In this document: positions 7,486-44,320 of the stretch, piece by piece | How the letters are laid out: every line of letters begins with the position of its first letter | Position numbering within the stretch: position 1 is the first letter of the stretch | Origin: Candidatus Daviesbacteria bacterium | GTDB taxonomy: Bacteria; Patescibacteriota; Microgenomatia; Daviesbacterales; UBA10151 | Reading direction: 5' to 3' | NCBI GenBank assembly: GCA_016183265.1 | Contig: JACPEX010000019.1 | Coordinates: 15,441 to 79,440, forward strand | Length of the DNA stretch: 64,000 nucleotides | Notes under the pieces: model-generated | The model's input: the letters and a program-made list of their open reading frames with translations, nothing else | Databases searched by the model: none | What the model was told of the DNA's origin: nothing | Translations under genes and position numbers: made by a program

Positions 7486-7526
7486 CGCTACTTGCCAAAA
7501 TAAGTCATTTATGGTTTACTAGTTAG

Positions 7527-7656
7527 TACATCAAGAGTATCCGACGTAATGTCGGATCGGCAACCTTAAAGTTTAAGGTGCCAAATCCTAAGAGGAAGAT
7601 GTGTCCCGAGCGTAGTCGAGGGAAAACTTTAAACCTCTCTTGATGAGAGGTTTTTT
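7527..7656 (+). promoter_or_regulatory. Compact SAM-I (S-box)-like riboswitch aptamer plus intrinsic terminator that includes the metK SD
   Basis: Contains UCAAGAG, CCGAC/GUCGG P2, GGCAACC, GGUGCCAAAUCC and AGAUG closing P1. The hairpin AACCUCUC-UUGAUG-AGAGGUU plus U6 ends 1 nt before the metK ATG. GAGAGG inside the hairpin is the only SD-like element. Confidence 0.7.
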
Positions 7657-20955: not shown

Positions 20956-21930
20956 TTGATGACTAGAAGAATTGATATATCCTACAAAACAGTTATTTTT
21001 ATTGCCATCTTCATATTGGCAATTTGGGTGACTTATTTAATTCGTGATCTTTTGATAATTTTATTTGTGGCAGTAATCTTGACATCTGCCTTATCGCCGC
21101 TGGTTGGATTATTAACTAGGTTTAAACTCCCAAAATCTCTAAGTATTGCCGTTGTTTACCTGACTTTAGTAGCTATTGTCGCAAGTTTATTGGCAATTAT
21201 TTTGCCGCCACTGGTTGAAGAAACCCGTAGACTTTTTTTAACAATCCCTCCCTATCTTGATCAGCTTTTGGATCAAGCTGCAATTGATAAATCAGTTTTG
21301 CAGTCACAATTAAGCAGCATATCCGGAAATGCTTTTTCTATCACCCTATCTATTTTTAGTAACTTGTTAACGATCATTTTTCTACTGGTTTTGACATTCT
21401 ATTTGCTGTTGGAACGGGAAGATGTGGAAAGGAGATTGGCTGCTCTTTTTGTCGGGAAAGAAGAAATGGTTAGGAAATTAATTATACAAATAGAAGAAAA
21501 ATTGGGTGGATGGCTGAGAGGACAGCTTTTCTTAAGTTTAATCATTGGAGTACTGACATACATTGGCCTGCTGATTTTAGGAATCCCATATGCTTTGCCG
21601 CTGGCAGTTATAGCCGGAATTTTGGAAGTAGTGCCGACAATCGGACCGATTATTTCAGCTATCCCTTCGGTTTTGATTGCATTAACCCTGTCTCCGGTTT
21701 TAGGCATAGTAGTGGGAGTTTTGTATTTTGCAATTCAACAGTTGGAAAATCACCTGATAGTGCCACAGGTGATGAAGCGGGCAGTTGGTTTAAATCCTCT
21801 GATAGTGATTCTGGCAATAGCAATAGGAGGAAGACTATTAGGTGTAGCAGGCGCGTTATTGGCAGTGCCAATGGCTGTTGTCATACAAATTATAGCTACA
21901 GAAATAATTAAAGAGAGAAAAATTGCCTAG
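20956..21930 (+). CDS. AI-2E family transporter (PerM/UPF0118)
   Basis: 8-TM profile and typical AI-2E sequence (GWLRGQLFLSLIIG, ILEVVPTIGP). Confidence 0.85.
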   Translation: MMTRRIDISYKTVIFIAIFILAIWVTYLIRDLLIILFVAVILTSALSPLVGLLTRFKLPKSLSIAVVYLTLVAIVASLLAIILPPLVEETRRLFLTIPPYLDQLLDQAAIDKSVLQSQLSSISGNAFSITLSIFSNLLTIIFLLVLTFYLLLEREDVERRLAALFVGKEEMVRKLIIQIEEKLGGWLRGQLFLSLIIGVLTYIGLLILGIPYALPLAVIAGILEVVPTIGPIISAIPSVLIALTLSPVLGIVVGVLYFAIQQLENHLIVPQVMKRAVGLNPLIVILAIAIGGRLLGVAGALLAVPMAVVIQIIATEIIKERKIA

Positions 21931-22220
21931 GAAAAGAATAAGCCAGATTCAGTTCGGTGAATATTATCTGAGTCTATTCACTTGATGATCATTTATCTGA
22001 TGCTCCTCACTTCGACAATCAAGCAAGCAGCTCTGTCGGTTCTAGGATTGCAGCGGGGAGGATTGCCACGTTTCATCCGAGCTTTACCCCGGTTCGTCAC
22101 TGTTGCTCTAACTAGGCCTTACGGCTGTCCGCTTACGCGGACCACCCTGCTTTATGCTGTCTGGACTTTCCTGAGCGTACCGTACGGTACACCCCGATCA
22201 TCCTTCTTCCTAGGCATGCA
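21922..22220 (-). ncRNA. rnpB: RNase P RNA (bacterial, reduced form)
   Basis: Minus strand reads ...GCUCAGGAAAGUCCAGACAGCAUAAAGCAGGGUGGUCC... (P4 5' strand, then the CAUA-GGGCAGGGUG-like block). It continues to ...ACUGAAUCUGGCUUAU (the ACAGAA-CCGGCUUA P4 3' block). P1 candidate is GCCUAGGAA/UUCCUAGGC. About 300 nt. Confidence 0.8.
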
Positions 22221-37256: not shown

Positions 37257-38459
37257 TTGTATAATAGGTGCATGATTAAAACCAGGTTTGCGCCATCACC
37301 AACAGGGATGATGCATATTGGCGGAGTCAGGACTGCTTTATATGCTTTTTTGGTTGCCCGTAAAAATAAGGGGGAATTTTTGTTAAGGATTGAGGATACT
37401 GATAGAAACAGATTTGTTCCGGAAGCCGCAGAAGATATTATTAAAAACCTTAGGTGGTTAGGATTAGATTTTGACGGTGAACCGATTATCCAATCCGAGC
37501 GAAAAGAAATTTATCAAAAATATGCCAAAGAGTTAATTGATAAAAACTTTGCTTATGAGCAGGATGGAGCTATTTGGTTTAAGGTGCCAAAAGAAGGGCA
37601 AATCAAATTTACTGATTTGATTGGCAACAGGGAAATCTCGTTTAACCTAATAGACCAAAAAGATTTTGTGTTACTTAAGTCTGATGGTTTTCCCACATAT
37701 CATCTGGCGCATGTTGTAGATGATCATGAAATGGAAACAGACCCGGTCATTAGAGGGGATGAGTGGCTTTCTTCTATACCCAAGCATATTTTGACTTTTC
37801 AAGCCTTTGGTTGGGAAGCGCCCCAGTATGCGCACCTGCCATTAATTGTAGGGACTGACCGTTCAAAGTTATCTAAAAGGCATGGGGCTAAAGCAGTAGG
37901 AGAGTTTCGTTCAGACGGATTCCTGCCTGAAGCAATCTTAAACTATATGGTTCTTTTGGGATGGACGCCTCCAGAAGACAAGGAGATAATTAGCTTAGAT
38001 GAAATGATTGAAGCTTTTGATTTAAAAAATGTCCACCTTGCATATTTAGTTGGCCGTCTTGCTAAAGAGAAAATTGCGCCGGTAGTACCTTTAATTAAAG
38101 ATAGAATTAAAAAACTCTCAGATTTTATTCCCTTAACTAATTTTTTGTGGGAGAAACCAGATTATGACATCGAAGTATTTAAAAAGCTAAACACCAAAAA
38201 TAAAAAAGAGATTTTAAGTAAGATTTTGGAACAACTGGAATTAATGGAAAAGCCCTGGAGAACAGAAATTTTTGAAAAAACATTTAGAAAATTAGCAGAG
38301 GATTTAGGGGTTAAAGCCGGTGATATATTCCAATTAATTCGAGTGGCAGTTTCAGGTCAGACTGTGACGCCGCCTCTTTTTGAAAGCATTCAAATTTTAG
38401 GAGAGGAAGAAGCTATTAAAAGAATAAAAGAAGCTGCCAAATTCTTACAATATTCTTAA
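37257..38459 (+). CDS. gltX: Glutamyl-tRNA synthetase (short form)
   Basis: HIGG-type motif (PSPTGMMHIGGVRTA) and KLSKRHG (KMSKS). The probable start is MIKTRF at 37272. Confidence 0.88.
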   Translation: MYNRCMIKTRFAPSPTGMMHIGGVRTALYAFLVARKNKGEFLLRIEDTDRNRFVPEAAEDIIKNLRWLGLDFDGEPIIQSERKEIYQKYAKELIDKNFAYEQDGAIWFKVPKEGQIKFTDLIGNREISFNLIDQKDFVLLKSDGFPTYHLAHVVDDHEMETDPVIRGDEWLSSIPKHILTFQAFGWEAPQYAHLPLIVGTDRSKLSKRHGAKAVGEFRSDGFLPEAILNYMVLLGWTPPEDKEIISLDEMIEAFDLKNVHLAYLVGRLAKEKIAPVVPLIKDRIKKLSDFIPLTNFLWEKPDYDIEVFKKLNTKNKKEILSKILEQLELMEKPWRTEIFEKTFRKLAEDLGVKAGDIFQLIRVAVSGQTVTPPLFESIQILGEEEAIKRIKEAAKFLQYS

Positions 38460-38494: not shown

Positions 38495-38851
38495 ATGGAA
38501 GATTCAAGATGGTTAAGACTGGTGACTATCGGATTAGTCTTGGCAGCTTTGGCAGTTGGTTACTTTTTATTTACAGGCAGGTTTTCTCAAGAATCTAAAA
38601 AGAGTGAAACTCAAATTTCTCAAGCCACTCCGACTGCTAGTATTACTGCTACCTTAAGGCCAACTGTTTTAGGTCAAAATACCGGAAGCTCACCTAGTCC
38701 AACACCTACTTCTGCTTACCAGGCAATAATCAGCCGTAACCAGCAAGGTACACAAGTCTTACCTAAGACAGGTTTTCCGGCAGGGCTAACAGCAATCTTG
38801 GCAATTTCAGCCTTAATCTCCGGCTGGGGACTGCGCCGATTTCCGCATTAG
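38495..38851 (+). CDS. Small LPXTG-anchored surface protein
   Basis: N-terminal TM/signal, low-complexity S/T/P region, then LPKTG plus a hydrophobic stretch plus the RRFPH tail. This is the classical sortase sorting signal. Confidence 0.65.
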   Translation: MEDSRWLRLVTIGLVLAALAVGYFLFTGRFSQESKKSETQISQATPTASITATLRPTVLGQNTGSSPSPTPTSAYQAIISRNQQGTQVLPKTGFPAGLTAILAISALISGWGLRRFPH

Positions 38852-38887: not shown

Positions 38888-38958
38888 TGCGGGATCATCT
38901 AATGGTAGGATACATGCCTCTGGAGCATGGCATCTTGGTTCAAATCCAAGTCCCGCAA
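38888..38958 (+). tRNA. tRNA-Gln (anticodon CUG), CCA not encoded
   Basis: Hand fold: U1-A72 acceptor (UGCGGGA/UCCCGCA) typical of bacterial tRNA-Gln. Anticodon stem CAUGC/GCAUG with loop CU-CUG-GA, T arm CUUGG-UUCAAAU-CCAAG. Confidence 0.75.
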
Positions 38959-38975
38959 CTAGGCACAAAAATATT

Positions 38976-39617
38976 GTGAAACGGAGATATTTTTTGTCAT
39001 TCTTACTTTTTCTTGTGGGTTTTTTCTTAATTACGGTTTTGGTAACTAGAGGAGTATTTTTGCAGATTGATAGGTATATTGACCAAAATTTGCCATATGT
39101 AGCTTGGCTTTATTATATTGCCAAAGCCGTAGATTATCTTTATTTGCCTGTAGTAGTGATAATGTTTGTATTGATATGGCATTTTTGGCAAAAAAAACAA
39201 AAATTTGAAACTTTTATGCTTTTTTTAACTTTTGCCGCTTTTGTAATTCCTGAATTAATTATTAAACCAGTATCACAAGTGCCTTGTCCGCCCAGCTTTT
39301 ATGCTGGTGTTCTGGCTAGTAAAGGGCTATTTCAATATCCGCTTTTTCAAAAGATTGCCCTTTTAGAAACATGCTATCCTTCTACCCATACTACCTCATA
39401 TGTGGTTTTTTTTGGTTATTTCATTTATTTAAGCTTGCGATATATTAAAAAACTTATGCTACGTCGGTTAATTATTGCCATTTTTATAATGATGATTGTT
39501 TTAGTAGGTCCTGCCATGGTTTATGTGCATGGCCATTGGCTGTCTGATGTAATAGCAGGATATTTCTTGGGTTTTGCTTTACTAAATTTTGTTCTTTGGT
39601 TGCGGATTAAGGCTTAA
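38976..39617 (+). CDS. PAP2-family membrane phosphatase
   Basis: PAP2 motifs: ...PSTH (C2) and ...HWLSDV (C3). 5-6 TM. Confidence 0.75.
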   Translation: MKRRYFLSFLLFLVGFFLITVLVTRGVFLQIDRYIDQNLPYVAWLYYIAKAVDYLYLPVVVIMFVLIWHFWQKKQKFETFMLFLTFAAFVIPELIIKPVSQVPCPPSFYAGVLASKGLFQYPLFQKIALLETCYPSTHTTSYVVFFGYFIYLSLRYIKKLMLRRLIIAIFIMMIVLVGPAMVYVHGHWLSDVIAGYFLGFALLNFVLWLRIKA

Positions 39618-40302
39618 TTGTACCTTTGGTATCATGGGCTAAATATTTTTTAAACCAATCCCTGGAAATTTCAGCCACTTTTCGTAAAGTACCGGGTTCT
39701 TCAAATAGATGAGTTGCTCCGGGGATAATTTCCAATTTTTTGGTAGTATTAAGTTTAAGATAAGCCTCCTGGTTTAACTTGATTACCTCCGGATCATTCT
39801 CACCTACAATCAGTAAAGTAGGAGATCTAACATGGTTTATTTCATCTATAGCCAGATCAGGCCTGCCGCCCCGCGATACTATTGCTCTTACTTTTGATCC
39901 AAATCCGGCTGCAGCTTTTAAAGCTGAGGCAGTGCCGGTACTGGCTCCAAAATAGCCGATTAATAAGTTTTTGGTTTGAGGTTGACTTAGAATCCATTCA
40001 GATGCTTTAATTAATCTTTGGGTAAGGAGCTTTATATTAAAACGGTTTTCAAAAATTAAATCTTCCTCCTCAGTAAGCAAATCAAAAAGCAAAGTGGCCA
40101 CCCTGGCCCGCCTTAATATGCCGGCTACAAAATTATTTCTGGGGCTGAATCTGCTGCTGCCGCTGCCATGGGCAAACAGGACAATGCCTAAAGGATTATG
40201 TGGTATCTTTAAGATACCCTCTGTTTTAAGCCCATTTAAGGAGATTGTAACAAGATAGTTTTTATCAAGGTTATCTTTTGGAATATTAAGATTTTTTACC
40301 AT
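39607..40302 (-). CDS. Alpha/beta hydrolase (dienelactone hydrolase-like)
   Basis: VLFAHGSGSS, a nucleophile-elbow-like GASTG, and a C-terminal His. Confidence 0.75.
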   Translation of the reverse strand: MVKNLNIPKDNLDKNYLVTISLNGLKTEGILKIPHNPLGIVLFAHGSGSSRFSPRNNFVAGILRRARVATLLFDLLTEEEDLIFENRFNIKLLTQRLIKASEWILSQPQTKNLLIGYFGASTGTASALKAAAGFGSKVRAIVSRGGRPDLAIDEINHVRSPTLLIVGENDPEVIKLNQEAYLKLNTTKKLEIIPGATHLFEEPGTLRKVAEISRDWFKKYLAHDTKGTIKP

Positions 40303-40436
40303 GTTGGTTTAGTATGTACTGCCCGTATTAAAACATCATCTGAAATTGGTAAGTCTTAAGTAAAAAACCTTGCCTGACTCTTACTTATCTATTAGGAAAT
40401 TTTAATTCTTCAATCTTAGAATTAGGTTAGAGATTT

Positions 40437-40850
40437 ATGATTTTTAAACTGACAGCAAAAAATTGCCAGGTATCAACACATACCCGGGAGTATATAAATC
40501 AGCGCTTAAAAAAAATTATTCAAAATCTTCCTGATATTGAGGAAGATTTGATAGTATTTCGATTAACAATTAGAAAAAATATTGATAAATATCACCCACC
40601 CAAAACTCACCCGCTTGTCCATAAAAATTATGCTAAAATTAAACCAGCCTTAGCTTATTTTGAGGGCTCGATGGCTTTTAGGCTTGATAAAAGACAGCTT
40701 TATGTGCATTTTAAAGGCCGGACTATTGATGAATGTATTGATCGGGGTTTCCACTTGATTTTTAAGGAATTGGAAAAATATAAGGATTTGCATTTGTCTT
40801 CTGAAAGTAAATATCCGGACCATAGTTCAATTAGAGCTAGATTTGCATGA
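40437..40850 (+). CDS. hpf: Ribosome hibernation-promoting factor / RaiA (YfiA) family protein, short form with insert
   Basis: N-terminus follows the M-x-I-x-I-x-x-KN-x-x-V-T-x-x-hydrophobic-R-x-Y-I-x-x-(K/R)-L-x-K HPF pattern. C-terminal TIDECIDRGFHLIFKELEKYKD matches AID.A.DKLERQL.KYK. Confidence 0.6.
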   Translation: MIFKLTAKNCQVSTHTREYINQRLKKIIQNLPDIEEDLIVFRLTIRKNIDKYHPPKTHPLVHKNYAKIKPALAYFEGSMAFRLDKRQLYVHFKGRTIDECIDRGFHLIFKELEKYKDLHLSSESKYPDHSSIRARFA

Positions 40851-41581
40851 AAGACGTACAAGTTTTGTCTGTTTATTTAAGCAGTGATAATAAACAAACC
40901 CCGTTGCCTGATTACTTATTGACTCAGTTTCATTCTTTAATCCATCAAAATCTAACAGGGACCCAAAAGAATAAATGGAGTAGGGGTATTTCTAGTATAG
41001 AAAGGTATATACGTGAGTCTTTTGACAGGAGTAATACCCGGACTTTAGTTTTCTTCACTGGTAAAAATCTTTGGCAAGTTTTAAATTTTGAATTCTATAT
41101 TCCGCCGGCATGCAGGATTTTATCTGCTGCTTACCTTAAACCGCTTGAGGAAATTTTAGATAGATACCAAAAGTATCTGGTTTTATTAGTTGACCGCAAA
41201 AAAGCTAAGTTGTTTACAGTTCATTTAGGCAAGATTGAAGAGCAAAAAGAGGTTTTTGACGGGGAAGTTCCCCAAAGAGTTAAGGCCGAAACCATAAATT
41301 TAGGCAGGACAGATAAAATTATGAGGGATATTGAATACCATGTGCATCATCATTTGCAGATAATAGCGGAGTCAACCAAAGAATTCATCAAAGGCAAGAA
41401 TATCCATTCTATAATATTAGGCGGGCATGCCGACCAGTTGCATAAACTTAAAAAGCATCTTACTTACCCTTTAAACCAAATGATTAAAGGTGAGTTTGTT
41501 ACTGAGTTAAATATTCCCTTAAATAAGATTTTAGCGCTTAGTAAAAAAGTGGCTTTAGAAATTTATACAAGTCAAAGATAA
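40847..41581 (+). CDS. eRF1/Pelota-like (baeRF-type) protein lacking the GGQ motif
   Basis: LVLLVDRKKAKLFTV...EVPQRVKAET...DIEYHVHHHLQIIAES...IHSIILGGHADQLHKL aligns block-for-block with eRF1 domain 2. GGQ is replaced by RVK. ATGA overlap with hpf. Confidence 0.55.
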   Translation: MKDVQVLSVYLSSDNKQTPLPDYLLTQFHSLIHQNLTGTQKNKWSRGISSIERYIRESFDRSNTRTLVFFTGKNLWQVLNFEFYIPPACRILSAAYLKPLEEILDRYQKYLVLLVDRKKAKLFTVHLGKIEEQKEVFDGEVPQRVKAETINLGRTDKIMRDIEYHVHHHLQIIAESTKEFIKGKNIHSIILGGHADQLHKLKKHLTYPLNQMIKGEFVTELNIPLNKILALSKKVALEIYTSQR

Positions 41582-42573
41582 CCGGTCGTAAGAAAGTTAT
41601 CATCAAATTTTTTGAGGGAAACATTTTTTAAATGCAGTGCTTTCTCAATAGTTTGAGTACCCTTTCCTCCAATACTGATTGCTGTTTTGCCCCCAATTAA
41701 TATAGGAGCATAAAATGCATACACTTTATCAATAATCCCGTCATCCAAAAAGTGGCCTAAGGTTTCTCCGCCGCCCTCAACTAAAACACTGATAATCCCT
41801 TTTTCTTTCAAGGCTGATAAAAGATCGGGGATTGCTTTAGCAGATATAATAAGGATATTCTGATCCCGTAAAACTTGACAATTTGTTGGAATTTGCTTTT
41901 TGGAACCTAAGATTATCCGCAAAGGATCTTTTTTTCCTTTTATGCGTACTCCTAAGTTGGGGTCATCTTTGAGGATAGTATTTACTCCTACCAGCACTGC
42001 CTGGTACTCATTTCGTAAACTCCTTGCATAAATTCTCGCTTTTTCGTTTGTGATCCATTTTGAATCTCCTGTTTTGGTAGCTAGTTTTCCATCCAAAGAA
42101 GCGGCAAATTTGATGGCTACAAACGGACGTTTTTTTTCATGAAATGTAAAAAAGGTTTCATTTAATTTACGTGCTTCTGTTTCTAAGATTCCGACTGATG
42201 TTTCTAAACAGGCTTCTTTTAATCTAGCTAAACTCTTACCATGATTTTTGGGGTTGGGATCTAGAGTGCAAAAGACTACTTTTTTAATTTTGGATTGGAT
42301 AATAGCATCAACGCAGGGAGGTGTTTTGCCAAAAACAGCACAGGGCTCCAAGTTTACATACATAGTTGCATCTTGAGGACTTTCTATAGCATTATTTAAA
42401 GCCTCGATTTCTGCATGAGGCAAACCTATCTTATGGTGGAAGCCTTTACCAATAATACGACCATTTTTGACAATTACTGCTCCCACCATTGGATTAGGAT
42501 TAGTCCAGCTCAAGCCTTTTTTGGCAAGATTAAGTGTTTCTTTTAAGAATTTAATGTCTTTATTCATAATCAA
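41572..42573 (-). CDS. ribD: Bifunctional riboflavin-biosynthesis deaminase/reductase RibD
   Basis: CMP/dCMP deaminase zinc motifs (HAEIEAL, PCAVFGKTPPC) plus a C-terminal RibD reductase domain. Confidence 0.9.
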   Translation of the reverse strand: MIMNKDIKFLKETLNLAKKGLSWTNPNPMVGAVIVKNGRIIGKGFHHKIGLPHAEIEALNNAIESPQDATMYVNLEPCAVFGKTPPCVDAIIQSKIKKVVFCTLDPNPKNHGKSLARLKEACLETSVGILETEARKLNETFFTFHEKKRPFVAIKFAASLDGKLATKTGDSKWITNEKARIYARSLRNEYQAVLVGVNTILKDDPNLGVRIKGKKDPLRIILGSKKQIPTNCQVLRDQNILIISAKAIPDLLSALKEKGIISVLVEGGGETLGHFLDDGIIDKVYAFYAPILIGGKTAISIGGKGTQTIEKALHLKNVSLKKFDDNFLTTGYL

Positions 42574-43151
42574 ACTAAGTTCAGCTTATGGCTCATTTTA
42601 TATTTTTTGGTTTTTAGGTAAGTTTTGTTGTTACGGTTTGGGGCAATCTCAAGAGGAATACACTCTTTTATGATTATCCCAAAATTCCTAAGTTGGCTAA
42701 TCTTATCAGGATTATTAGTTAACAAGTTAATTTGGTTAATTTCTAATTCTTTGAGTATTTGGGCGGCTACATTATAACTGCGCTGGTCAGCGGTAAATCC
42801 TAATTGTTCGTTAGCGGTAACTGTATCAAGACCATTTTCTTGTAAAGCGTAAGCCTTGATTTTATTGGTTAAACCAATCCCTCTTCCTTCTTGGTTCAAG
42901 TATATCAATACTCCATTTCTAGCTTGCCCGATTTTTTTTAAGCTTTGCTGCAGTTGTTCATGACAGTCACATTTTAGTGAGGAGAAAGTATCACCAGTCA
43001 GGCACCACGAATGGATTCTAACCAAAACCCCACTTTTAAAATTTCCCCCCTTTACTAAAGCAACATGTTCTAAATTATCTTCTTTTGTTTTAAAGACTAT
43101 AATTTTGAAAATGCCGTATTTTGTTGGTAAAGTAGCTGAAGCGGCTTTCAT
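42570..43151 (-). CDS. ribA: GTP cyclohydrolase II
   Basis: Zinc Cys triad context (C..GD...C.C) and RGIGL, NKIKA. Confidence 0.88.
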   Translation of the reverse strand: MKAASATLPTKYGIFKIIVFKTKEDNLEHVALVKGGNFKSGVLVRIHSWCLTGDTFSSLKCDCHEQLQQSLKKIGQARNGVLIYLNQEGRGIGLTNKIKAYALQENGLDTVTANEQLGFTADQRSYNVAAQILKELEINQINLLTNNPDKISQLRNFGIIIKECIPLEIAPNRNNKTYLKTKKYKMSHKLNLV

Positions 43152-43624
43152 AGCTTTGATAAAACTTTAATGGTTTCAAGCAGCGTTCGGGCTGCTTCTA
43201 TGCCTCTGTTATATTTTCCCATGCTTCTTTTTTCTGCCTGTTTAAGGTTGTAGACGGCCAATACCTCAAGGGTAACCGGGATATTAAATTCTAAGGAAAT
43301 ATCCATCAGGGCCCGGGCGCATTCATTGGCGATCATCTCAAAATGATAAGTTTCCCCTTTAAGGATGATTCCGAAAGTAATAATTCCGTCAAACTTTTTA
43401 CTTGAAGCAGCCTTTTTAACCGTTAAAGGGATTTCCCATGATCCGGGCACTGTATATGTGGATATATTACTTTCTTTAACTCCATTGGCAAGTAAATAAT
43501 CTTTGCAGGCTTTTTCTAAATTTTCTGTTAAATCCGGATAATAATTGCTTTTAACAATGGCAATTTTAAGCTTAGAATTAGCTGTGCTGTATTCTTTTGC
43601 ATTTTTAGAAAAATCTTTTATCAT
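43148..43624 (-). CDS. ribH: 6,7-dimethyl-8-ribityllumazine synthase
   Basis: Typical RibH length and sequence (GSWEIP, GIITFG.I.KGET.HFE). Confidence 0.9.
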   Translation of the reverse strand: MIKDFSKNAKEYSTANSKLKIAIVKSNYYPDLTENLEKACKDYLLANGVKESNISTYTVPGSWEIPLTVKKAASSKKFDGIITFGIILKGETYHFEMIANECARALMDISLEFNIPVTLEVLAVYNLKQAEKRSMGKYNRGIEAARTLLETIKVLSKL

Positions 43625-44202
43625 TTTTTTAATAATTTTTCTATGTATTTTGCCAAAATGTCAACTTCGATATTGACAAAATCGCCTATTTTGATGGTAT
43701 TTAACATAGTATTTTTCCAGGTATAAGGAATTATGCCTACAATGAAATATTTTCTTTTAGCTTCAATTATTGTAAGAGAGATGCCGTTAACAGCAATCGA
43801 CCCCTTTTCCGTAATATATTTAGAAAGATTATCAGGGATAGAGAATTGAAGGATGTGGCTATTTTTATTTCTTTCGATACGAACTAATTTAGCAATTCCA
43901 TCAATATGACCCTGGACGATATGGCCAGACAGTAAAGTTGTGGGCGTAACAGGGAGTTCCAGGTTTGTCAAATCATTGATTTTAAGATGTCCTAACATTG
44001 TCTTTTTCTGTGTTTCAGGCATAACTTCAACAGAAAAAGAATTTTGGGCAGGTTTTGCAAAAGCAGTTAGACATACGCCATTTACAGCAATACTAGTACC
44101 TTTGCTGATTTTTTTACAAAATGCAGGATTTGCAATGAAGGTAAAAACGGATTTTTTTATTCCAATAAATTTCCCTAAATGGGTAATAATTCCTGTAAAC
44201 AT
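43621..44202 (-). CDS. ribE: Riboflavin synthase alpha chain
   Basis: MFTGII..LG (start set at ATG 44202; the track ORF extension overlaps the riboswitch). Duplicated lumazine-binding halves. Confidence 0.88.
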   Translation of the reverse strand: MFTGIITHLGKFIGIKKSVFTFIANPAFCKKISKGTSIAVNGVCLTAFAKPAQNSFSVEVMPETQKKTMLGHLKINDLTNLELPVTPTTLLSGHIVQGHIDGIAKLVRIERNKNSHILQFSIPDNLSKYITEKGSIAVNGISLTIIEAKRKYFIVGIIPYTWKNTMLNTIKIGDFVNIEVDILAKYIEKLLKK

Positions 44203-44320
44203 ATTCTCTCTTTCATCCCGACTGTACGGTCGGCTTTGGAATTTCACCAAATCATGTCTTATGGACTCGTGGGCTATACCACCGATTTTGACTTACACAA
44301 AATCCCCGAAAGAATGTTTA
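44203..44320 (-). promoter_or_regulatory. FMN riboswitch (RFN element) ending at the ribE start codon
   Basis: Minus-strand leader has UUCUUUCGGGG..., GGUGGUAUAGCCCACGAG, GGUGAAAUUCC..AAGCCGACCGUACAGUCGGGAUGAAAGAGAGAAU-AUG. This matches the FMN aptamer 3' half (GCCGACAGUGAAAGUCUGGAUGGGAGAAGGA). The 3' strand of P1 spans the SD region. Confidence 0.75.

Follow-up and report, generated by a model that had tools for sequence, protein, structure and literature searches.

What do two overlapping genes in the genome of a Candidatus Daviesbacteria bacterium encode, and do their products act together on the ribosome? The genes lie on contig JACPEX010000019.1 (assembly GCA_016183265.1) within a stretch of 64,000 nucleotides (contig positions 15,441 to 79,440) that was analysed as a whole and is referred to here as the window; coordinates are those of the window unless a locus from another genome is named. 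We call the two open reading frames (ORFs), and the proteins that they encode, ORF A and ORF B. ORF A is a short ribosome hibernation factor with a predicted HPF/RaiA fold, and ORF B is a two-domain protein of bacterial eRF1-like (baeRF-1) family 10 that resembles the hibernation factor Balon. The pair is a new member, from a lineage of the Candidate Phyla Radiation (CPR), of the known pairing between HPF/RaiA and Balon/baeRF-1 hibernation factors, and it is probably a translationally coupled two-gene operon for ribosome hibernation in which a Balon-type factor occurs in reduced form. Its apparent lineage-specific features, as judged from the sequences, are the missing C-terminal domain of ORF B and the insertion and tail of ORF A.

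Pairings of this kind have precedents. The baeRF-1 families go back to Burroughs and Aravind (2019; PMC6514570), who also reported an operon link between HPF and baeRF-1 genes, which they found in unrelated baeRF-1 families. Three of their families are reduced to the core domain, and one keeps the N-domain and has lost the C-terminal Pelota domain; this last family may be the clade of ORF B. The same authors proposed that baeRF-1 members without the catalytic glutamine are non-catalytic blockers of the A site that work with HPF, and singled out family 10 for a conserved and possibly catalytic Gln. Cryo-electron microscopy later placed Balon in the A site of a 70S ribosome that also held RaiA (Helena-Bueno et al., Nature 2024; PMC10901736). 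In that structure Balon contacts the decoding centre as well as the peptidyl-transferase centre (PTC), and raiA is the most frequent neighbour of Balon genes. A sequence-only reading of the window had taken a module of this kind to be one not described experimentally, a claim that these two studies overturn, the operon link having been published in 2019 and the joint presence of Balon and RaiA on the 70S ribosome in 2024. The 2024 survey discarded Balon homologs shorter than 300 amino acids (aa), so two-domain forms from CPR bacteria fell outside the published Balon analysis. Our literature search turned up no study of Balon-like factors from CPR bacteria.

Two conserved and overlapping genes

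The sequence and the ORF map place both genes where the sequence-only reading had put them, with the stop codon of ORF A and the start codon of ORF B sharing an ATGA (Table 1). This overlap suggests that the two are translated together. At the level of sequence clusters there are 52 homologs of ORF A and 107 of ORF B. Those that carry names come nearly all from Candidatus Daviesbacteria, Curtissbacteria, Levybacteria or the 'Patescibacteria group' (Microgenomates-type CPR), and one of them, HYU94_01865 from a metagenome-assembled genome of Candidatus Daviesbacteria, is 100% identical to ORF A. ORF A and ORF B are real, conserved genes. Both products are basic, with isoelectric points of 9.67 (ORF A) and 9.50 (ORF B).

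ORF A: predicted HPF/RaiA fold, insertion and C-terminal tail

Taken as a single sequence, ORF A is too divergent for the curated thresholds of the short HPF/RaiA (YfiA) family. It matches PF02482 (Ribosomal_S30AE) at 17.3 bits (cut-off of 23.7; E = 0.008), over its N-terminal half only, and TIGR00741 (yfiA) at 14.9 bits, below the cut-off of 40.9 (E = 0.027). Two members of its family, P0113 and P0119, carry a precomputed PF02482 match, and the NCBI name of P0119 is 'HPF/RaiA family'. Single-sequence phmmer searches with each of the two proteins against the PDB were set aside, as they returned noise only (His-tags of malate dehydrogenase, with Balon at E = 0.23), so that family profiles were needed. 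With a profile of 47 ORF A family members, E. coli HPF (6h4n_x) is matched at E = 8e-4; the alignment falls into two blocks, which pair residues 1–43 with HPF residues 1–43 and residues 80–118 with HPF residues 53–91.

The AlphaFold2 model of ORF A (predicted local distance difference test (pLDDT) score of 77) has the HPF topology, beta-alpha-beta-beta-beta-alpha. When the model was compared with the PDB using Foldseek, the best 37 matches were all HPF, RaiA or pY structures, with TM-scores of 0.6–0.83 (normalised to target length). The top match, at E = 7e-6, is 8rd8_D, the RaiA of the Balon–RaiA ribosome from Psychrobacter urativorans. The family profile and the modelled structure thus bear out the HPF-like character that the sequence-only reading had seen in ORF A, for which the single-sequence scores are weak, and on the strength of the model we assign ORF A to the HPF/RaiA fold.

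The internal insert noted in the same reading is real, although smaller than the roughly 40 aa given for it: the model assigns it 27 aa, and the two aligned blocks are separated by about 36 residues in ORF A compared with 9 in E. coli HPF. It occupies the beta2–beta3 connection, has a basic, His- and Pro-rich sequence and forms a low-confidence loop in the model. Its residues N48, D50, Y52, P54, Y65 and K69 are each at least 93% conserved in the family, and more distant homologs of the Levybacteria and Curtissbacteria type carry at this site an insertion whose sequence differs, while keeping the tail motif. In the tail, Y126 and R133 are invariant; the tail is predicted to be disordered when the protein is free, and its residues 121–137 have pLDDT values of less than 50. 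ORF A has no long-HPF C-terminal dimerisation domain, as the protein ends 23 aa past alpha2, and the family ranges from 129 to 146 aa in length. ORF A therefore resembles E. coli HPF (95 aa) in fold, small size, basic charge and the lack of this dimerisation domain, and differs from it in having the 27-aa beta2–beta3 insertion and the 23-aa C-terminal motif.

A two-domain relative of Balon

ORF B passes the gathering threshold of PF18854 (baeRF_family10) over residues 96–228 (73.4 bits, with a cut-off of 27.1; E = 3e-20), and so belongs to a clade in which HPF operons have already been reported. TIGR03676 (aRF1/eRF1) matches its M-domain, with residues 91–215 aligned to model positions 115–240 (E = 5e-8). 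Against the three NCBIfam families of Balon-type ribosome hibernation factors (NF052287, NF052288 and NF052289), ORF B scores 23.2 bits (cut-off of 330), 16.4 bits (480) and 19.1 bits (320), sequence matches that we regard as weak but specific. A profile built from 53 sequences matches the mycobacterial Balon MSMEG_1130 (8v9j_z) at E = 3e-7, with residues 18–229 aligned to 22–236, P. urativorans Balon (8rd8_B) at E = 2e-4 and aRF1 (4af1) at E = 6e-3; the profile matches span residues ~22–236 of the 375 residues of Balon.

In a Foldseek search with the AlphaFold2 model of ORF B (pLDDT of 88; predicted TM-score (pTM) of 0.75), Balon chains came first (E = 6e-13, TMq of 0.71, root-mean-square deviation (r.m.s.d.) of 4.2 Å), followed by aRF1/eRF1 (E = 1e-11 to 1e-8, r.m.s.d. 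of 8–14 Å), with Pelota far behind (E = 1e-4 to 1e-3). By these deviations, the modelled domain arrangement is closer to that of ribosome-bound Balon than to that of eRF1. The block-by-block alignment with eRF1 domain 2 in the sequence-only reading agrees with the HMMER profile alignment to 4af1 and with the PF18854 and TIGR03676 matches. Its description of ORF B as a Pelota-like rescue protein has to be given up, as Balon and aRF1/eRF1 are the nearest structures, Pelota matches at only about 1e-4 and the domain that engages GTPases is absent.

The resemblance to the Balon–RaiA pairs of P. urativorans and Mycobacterium (Msmeg1130/Rv2629) extends over both genes. In each case a protein of the aeRF1 superfamily without GGQ or NIKS motifs is encoded beside an HPF/RaiA gene, and the structures that best match ORF B and ORF A are the Balon chains and the co-bound RaiA (8rd8_D), respectively. 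The N-domain of ORF B corresponds to the domain of aeRF1 and Balon that binds the decoding centre. Direct reading of this domain found no NIKS string. Balon has an HP motif at the decoding centre, as well as a lasso loop around A2602 and a bL27 trap; in the loop after beta1 of ORF B, a proline (P19, 79% conserved) lies at most one residue away from the 'EHP' of P. urativorans Balon in the alignment, without a His.

ORF B ends ~15 aa past its M-domain, and neither a Pfam scan nor the AlphaFold2 model revealed an eRF1_3/Pelota-type C-domain in it. A full-length relative of 374 aa (L043) has both PF18854 and, at residues 256–373, eRF1_3. Whereas Balon is ~360–375 aa in length and has three domains (N-M-C) with an EF-Tu-binding beta-hairpin, ORF B is 244 aa in length and retains only the N- and M-domains. 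It likewise differs from the family-10 prototype, which is ~370–390 aa at full length with eRF1_3 and of which a subset keeps GGxSQ and the conserved Gln; by comparison, ORF B is a truncated CPR derivative in which the GGxSQ-type motif has been lost. The folds of the N- and M-domains are shared with aRF1/eRF1 and with Pelota/Dom34, but ORF B differs from classical aRF1/eRF1 in having no GGQ, no NIKS and no C-domain.

An exhaustive search with the ORF B profile returned 2,632 representatives at E ≤ 1e-3. These form two groups, a coherent short clade of ~250–275 aa and long forms of 360–400 aa; the short group also includes a few proteins of ~145 aa that consist of the M-domain alone.

A release-factor loop without its motif

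The loop at residues 138–154 is the part of the ORF B model with the lowest pLDDT (55–68); it is flexible and is followed by a long helix (residues 155–181). Where the full-length family-10 proteins used for comparison read VPGKHxQGG-WSQ, a GGxSQ-type release motif, ORF B reads VPQRVKAETIN-LGRT and short forms of the Curtissbacteria type read VPQRVKHGDDTWDQQ. The Gly-Gly of the release motif has gone and R154 stands in place of the release-factor Gln. ORF B is thus indeed without GGQ, as the sequence-only reading had proposed. In the alignment with aRF1/eRF1, the VPQ of ORF B falls on the VPG/LPK ahead of GGQ, and V141 and P142 are both 98% conserved. In the helix after the loop, R160, E163 and H169 are near-invariant; judged from the alignment, R160 agrees with the account of positively charged residues that contact rRNA in baeRF-1 proteins (PMC6514570).

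Among 150 representatives, GGxSQ or GGQ occurs in 1 of 53 short forms, in none of 12 fragments or M-domain-only proteins and in 14 of 86 long forms. The pattern [VIFL]PQ is present in 35 of 53 short and 3 of 86 long forms. We considered whether loss of the GG..SQ motif went with loss of the C-domain and rejected a tight link between them, since most long forms also lack the motif.

Linkage of the two genes across genomes

A scan for baeRF loci, limited to one genome per species, recovered 49 loci. An ORF A-type gene lies immediately upstream of the baeRF gene and on the same strand in 17 of the 28 informative short-form loci, and 0.7 kb away in one more. Ten of 18 junctions (window included) have the 4-nt overlap, and most others range from −1 to +19 nt. 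The adjacency spans loci of the Daviesbacteria, Curtissbacteria and Levybacteria types; the pairing that the sequence-only reading proposed is therefore conserved in related genomes.

Genes for M-domain-only baeRF proteins (139–153 aa) were found in four of the loci (Table 1). Three of them (in L024, L025 and L027) directly follow an ORF A-type gene, and a 4-nt overlap with the upstream HPF-type gene is present in three of the four loci. Given these genes, the N-domain appears to be dispensable in some Daviesbacteria-type and related lineages.

Other baeRF genes have other neighbours. Saccharibacteria-type short forms lie beside DUF5666, PheRS or acyltransferase genes, the short baeRF gene of L010 has Hsp20 upstream, and full-length family-10 genes neighbour PCMT, sigma-70, MerR or PIG-L genes. 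In L032, L033 and L035, a gene for PCMT (protein-L-isoaspartate O-methyltransferase) precedes a full-length family-10 baeRF gene that bears GGxSQ, and in L036 and L040 the upstream ORF has the same size as these PCMT genes. This neighbourhood may point to a setting of protein repair or stress, separate from the linkage to HPF.

In the reverse direction, a metagenome scan with the ORF A profile contributed 4 loci, and the informative sample comprised 7 ORF A-type loci, several of which were picked from the more divergent members. A baeRF gene lies downstream in three of these seven (L050, L051 and L054), so the sequence-only reading was right that the pairing recurs and wrong to call it fixed. 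In L050 (463–1229), the baeRF gene that follows the ORF A-type gene is broken up into ORFs of 185 and 70 aa, through a frameshift or decay to a pseudogene, or else through misassembly of a short metagenome contig. The lone ORF A-type genes (Table 1) keep both the insertion and the tail, and are followed by beta-lactamase-fold, convergent epimerase or P-type ATPase genes. A divergent phosphoribosyltransferase gene lies upstream of the ORF A-type gene in L054, L056 and L060. The pairing of ORF A with baeRF is frequent and tightly coupled within Microgenomates, yet it is not obligatory, and ORF A looks like the regular HPF of this clade.

A probable hibernation pair and its alternatives

From the folds, domain content, motif loss and gene linkage observed here, we infer that the two proteins bind the ribosome, occupy it simultaneously and have a role in dormancy. 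By homology, ORF A would bind the decoding channel of the 30S subunit and block the mRNA as well as the tRNA positions of the A and P sites, with its basic insertion and conserved tail probably adding contacts to rRNA. ORF B, as a reduced Balon-type factor presumably derived from baeRF-1 family 10, would have its N-domain at the decoding centre, with its M-domain extending towards the PTC. With the GG..Q hydrolysis motif gone from its loop, it would fill the A site but release no peptide; because it has no C-domain, the contact with EF-Tu described for Balon would not be available to it. The expected mode, predicted here from homology to the Balon–RaiA pair, is occupancy of the A site and the decoding channel together, with ORF B entering the A site independently of EF-Tu and alongside HPF, as in the 'state 1' ribosome with Balon and RaiA.

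A more specific version, which we put forward tentatively and think somewhat doubtful, is that the pair is a minimal, EF-Tu-independent module. In this version a Balon-type factor reduced to its N- and M-domains (or to the M-domain only) depends on the co-translated HPF, and the insertion and SEYPDHSSIR tail of the HPF replace the contacts of the lost C-domain; they could bridge to the baeRF protein or bind rRNA features specific to CPR bacteria. That the insertion and tail serve ORF B as docking sites is made less likely by the presence of both in ORF A-type genes that have no adjacent baeRF gene.

Several observations count against a hibernation operon of the Balon type. ORF B scores far below the NCBIfam equivalog cut-offs for Balon (23 bits compared with 330), and it lacks the C-domain and the EF-Tu-binding hairpin that the Balon paper deems conserved and important. 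Short baeRF genes of the Saccharibacteria type have no adjacent HPF gene, and four of the seven ORF A-type loci (L052, L056, L058 and L060) have no adjacent baeRF gene. Finally, Q143 is 90% conserved, and a chemical role for this residue is possible on the basis of that conservation.

The gaps in linkage would be explained if the two genes were mere neighbours in a compact genome, with ORF A serving as a housekeeping HPF and ORF B in an independent role on the ribosome, for example in shielding the A site or the PTC from toxins or nucleases. Lone ORF A-type genes, one of them on a contig of 1.02 Mb, would then be expected, as would short baeRF genes without HPF in Saccharibacteria-type loci or next to Hsp20 in L010, and overlapping genes are common in small genomes. 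We nevertheless consider this account unlikely: the same order and strand, with junctions that mostly overlap or abut, persist despite the divergence of ORF A homologs (E of ~1e-20), and they persist even where the partner has been reduced to its M-domain (L024, L025 and L027). Unrelated baeRF-1 families show the same association, and ribosome structures contain Balon and RaiA bound together.

If instead the Gln of VPQ were catalytic, ORF B would work as an alternative release factor or peptidyl-tRNA hydrolase, and the part of ORF A would be limited to silencing the ribosome at a later stage. Burroughs and Aravind proposed such a role for family 10 under special circumstances and noted the Gln retained in family 10 (PMC6514570); a subset of full-length family-10 proteins has VPGKHxQGG-WSQ, and Q143 is conserved within a flexible loop. 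Its position argues otherwise, as Q143 aligns with VPG/LPK, ~7–11 residues upstream of the release-factor Gln, where ORF B has R154 and no Gly-Gly, and GGxSQ or GGQ is all but absent from the short forms (1 of 53). Lacking a C-domain and NIKS, ORF B also has no evident means of coupling hydrolysis to a signal. We therefore regard catalysis by ORF B as very unlikely. Still less credible, and close to negligible in our assessment, is a role in rescuing or splitting stalled ribosomes in the manner of Pelota/Dom34. ORF B would be, like Pelota, a non-catalytic A-site protein of the aeRF1 superfamily, and Pelota chains are among its weaker fold matches (E = 1e-4 to 1e-3), but they rank far below Balon and aRF1/eRF1. 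The C-domain with which Pelota/Dom34 engages Hbs1/aEF1alpha is missing from ORF B. Pelota-dependent splitting also relies on ABCE1, which is not known from bacteria. The N-domain of Pelota/Dom34 is an Sm-like beta-barrel (PMC6514570), whereas that of ORF B is modelled as mixed alpha/beta with three helices (H21–35, H38–43 and H45–57). Linkage to an HPF gene, moreover, points to silencing and not to rescue.

Features of the locus and its surroundings

Table 1. Coordinates of the paired genes, their parts and the related loci. Positions are in the window, except for those preceded by a locus name; AF2, AlphaFold2; UTR, untranslated region; E and H in the N-domain row denote strands and helices.
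Feature	Position	Strand	Residues or length	Description and basis
ORF A	40437..40850	+	137 aa	ATG start; short HPF/RaiA-fold ribosome hibernation factor (predicted)
ORF B	40847..41581	+	244 aa	ATG start; two-domain (N+M) baeRF-1 family 10, Balon-like
ATGA start/stop overlap	40847..40850	+		Shared by ORF A and ORF B; read from sequence
Intergenic region, DLH gene to ORF A	40303..40436	.		Presumably holds the promoter and 5' UTR of the two genes
ORF A structural elements		+	beta1 2–8, alpha1 14–30, beta2 40–47, insert 48–74, beta3 75–83, beta4 86–94, alpha2 97–114, tail 115–137	AF2 model
ORF A insertion, beta2–beta3 connection	40578..40658	+	aa 48–74	NIDKYHPPKTHPLVHKNYAKIKPALAY; two-block HPF alignment and model
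ORF A C-terminal tail	40779..40847	+	aa 115–137	Conserved motif YK[DG]xHF..SEYPDHSSIR
ORF B N-domain	40847..41131	+	aa 1–95	Counterpart of the decoding-centre-binding domain of aeRF1/Balon
ORF B N-domain elements		+	E6–12, H21–35, H38–43, H45–57, E66–71, E76–81, E88–92	AF2 model
ORF B M-domain	41132..41578	+	aa 96–244	RNase-H-like release-factor core; Pfam match at 96–228 and model
ORF B degenerate catalytic loop	41258..41308	+	aa 138–154	DGEVPQRVKAETINLGR; alignment, conservation and motif tally
M-domain-only baeRF genes	L024:3998-4444; L025:3992-4417; L027:4004-4465; L047:3980-4399		139–153 aa	baeRF gene reduced to the M-domain
Lone ORF A-type genes	L056:2989-3435 (contig Ga0209514_10000005, 1.02 Mb); L060:1440-1829; L058:3001-3426; L052:125-544			No adjacent baeRF gene

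Upstream of the pair, and divergent from it, is a gene for a DLH-family hydrolase (39607–40302, minus strand; ORF map and DLH Pfam match). The promoter of the pair presumably lies in the intervening region; a promoter scan found no plus-strand match to the sigma-70 consensus upstream of ORF A. A divergent synteny of DLH, phosphoribosyltransferase and YjbQ genes is also present at L054. Downstream, a terminator scan found none after ORF B, the end of which overlaps the convergent ribD gene. This ribD-like gene overlaps the 3' end of ORF B by 10 nt and is the last of a minus-strand run of four ORFs (41572–44250), which read as riboflavin-synthesis genes, named from their translations only. A flavin mononucleotide (FMN) riboswitch (44201–44317, minus strand, 93 bits) lies upstream of the run.

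The window holds other features of note. A bacterial class A RNase P RNA (21923–22213, minus strand) covers 367 of 367 model positions within 291 nt and appears shortened, scoring 108 against a gathering threshold of 100. A SAM-I/IV riboswitch match (7523–7639, plus strand) scores 45.7, with a gathering score of 41.1. An ORF of 118 aa (38495–38851, plus strand) has a Ser/Thr/Pro-rich middle; at its C terminus, LPKTG leads into a hydrophobic segment and then a basic tail (RRFPH), which together look like a sortase (LPxTG) cell-wall sorting signal. A glutamyl-tRNA-synthetase-like ORF (37257–38459, plus strand) was called from a TTG start and has only 400 aa; its true start is likely to be the Met directly before IKTRFAPSPTG. 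A tRNA-Gln(CTG) gene (38888–38959, plus strand) lies ~430 nt downstream of this ORF.

Significance for the Candidate Phyla Radiation

These results place a hibernation pair of the Balon/RaiA type in the CPR, the members of which are ultrasmall, mostly uncultured and have unusual ribosomes, and for which dormancy is probably central to lifestyle. In the cultured Saccharibacterium S. epibionticum, the only CPR bacterium open to genetic work, canonical RaiA was scored essential (ES) in two of three transposon-sequencing (Tn-seq) columns; a 'ribosome release factor' required in the same data was considered as a candidate baeRF and rejected, being an ordinary RF1. The CPR form is a natural minimal Balon without the EF-Tu-binding domain, and as such would allow a clean test of the need for EF-Tu contact in A-site hibernation. 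In other respects the locus confirms known biology and is not a new system. Should the reading of the pair as a minimal, EF-Tu-independent module prove true, hibernation factors of the A site would need no link to the GTPase centre or EF-Tu, a link thought to be conserved in Balon.

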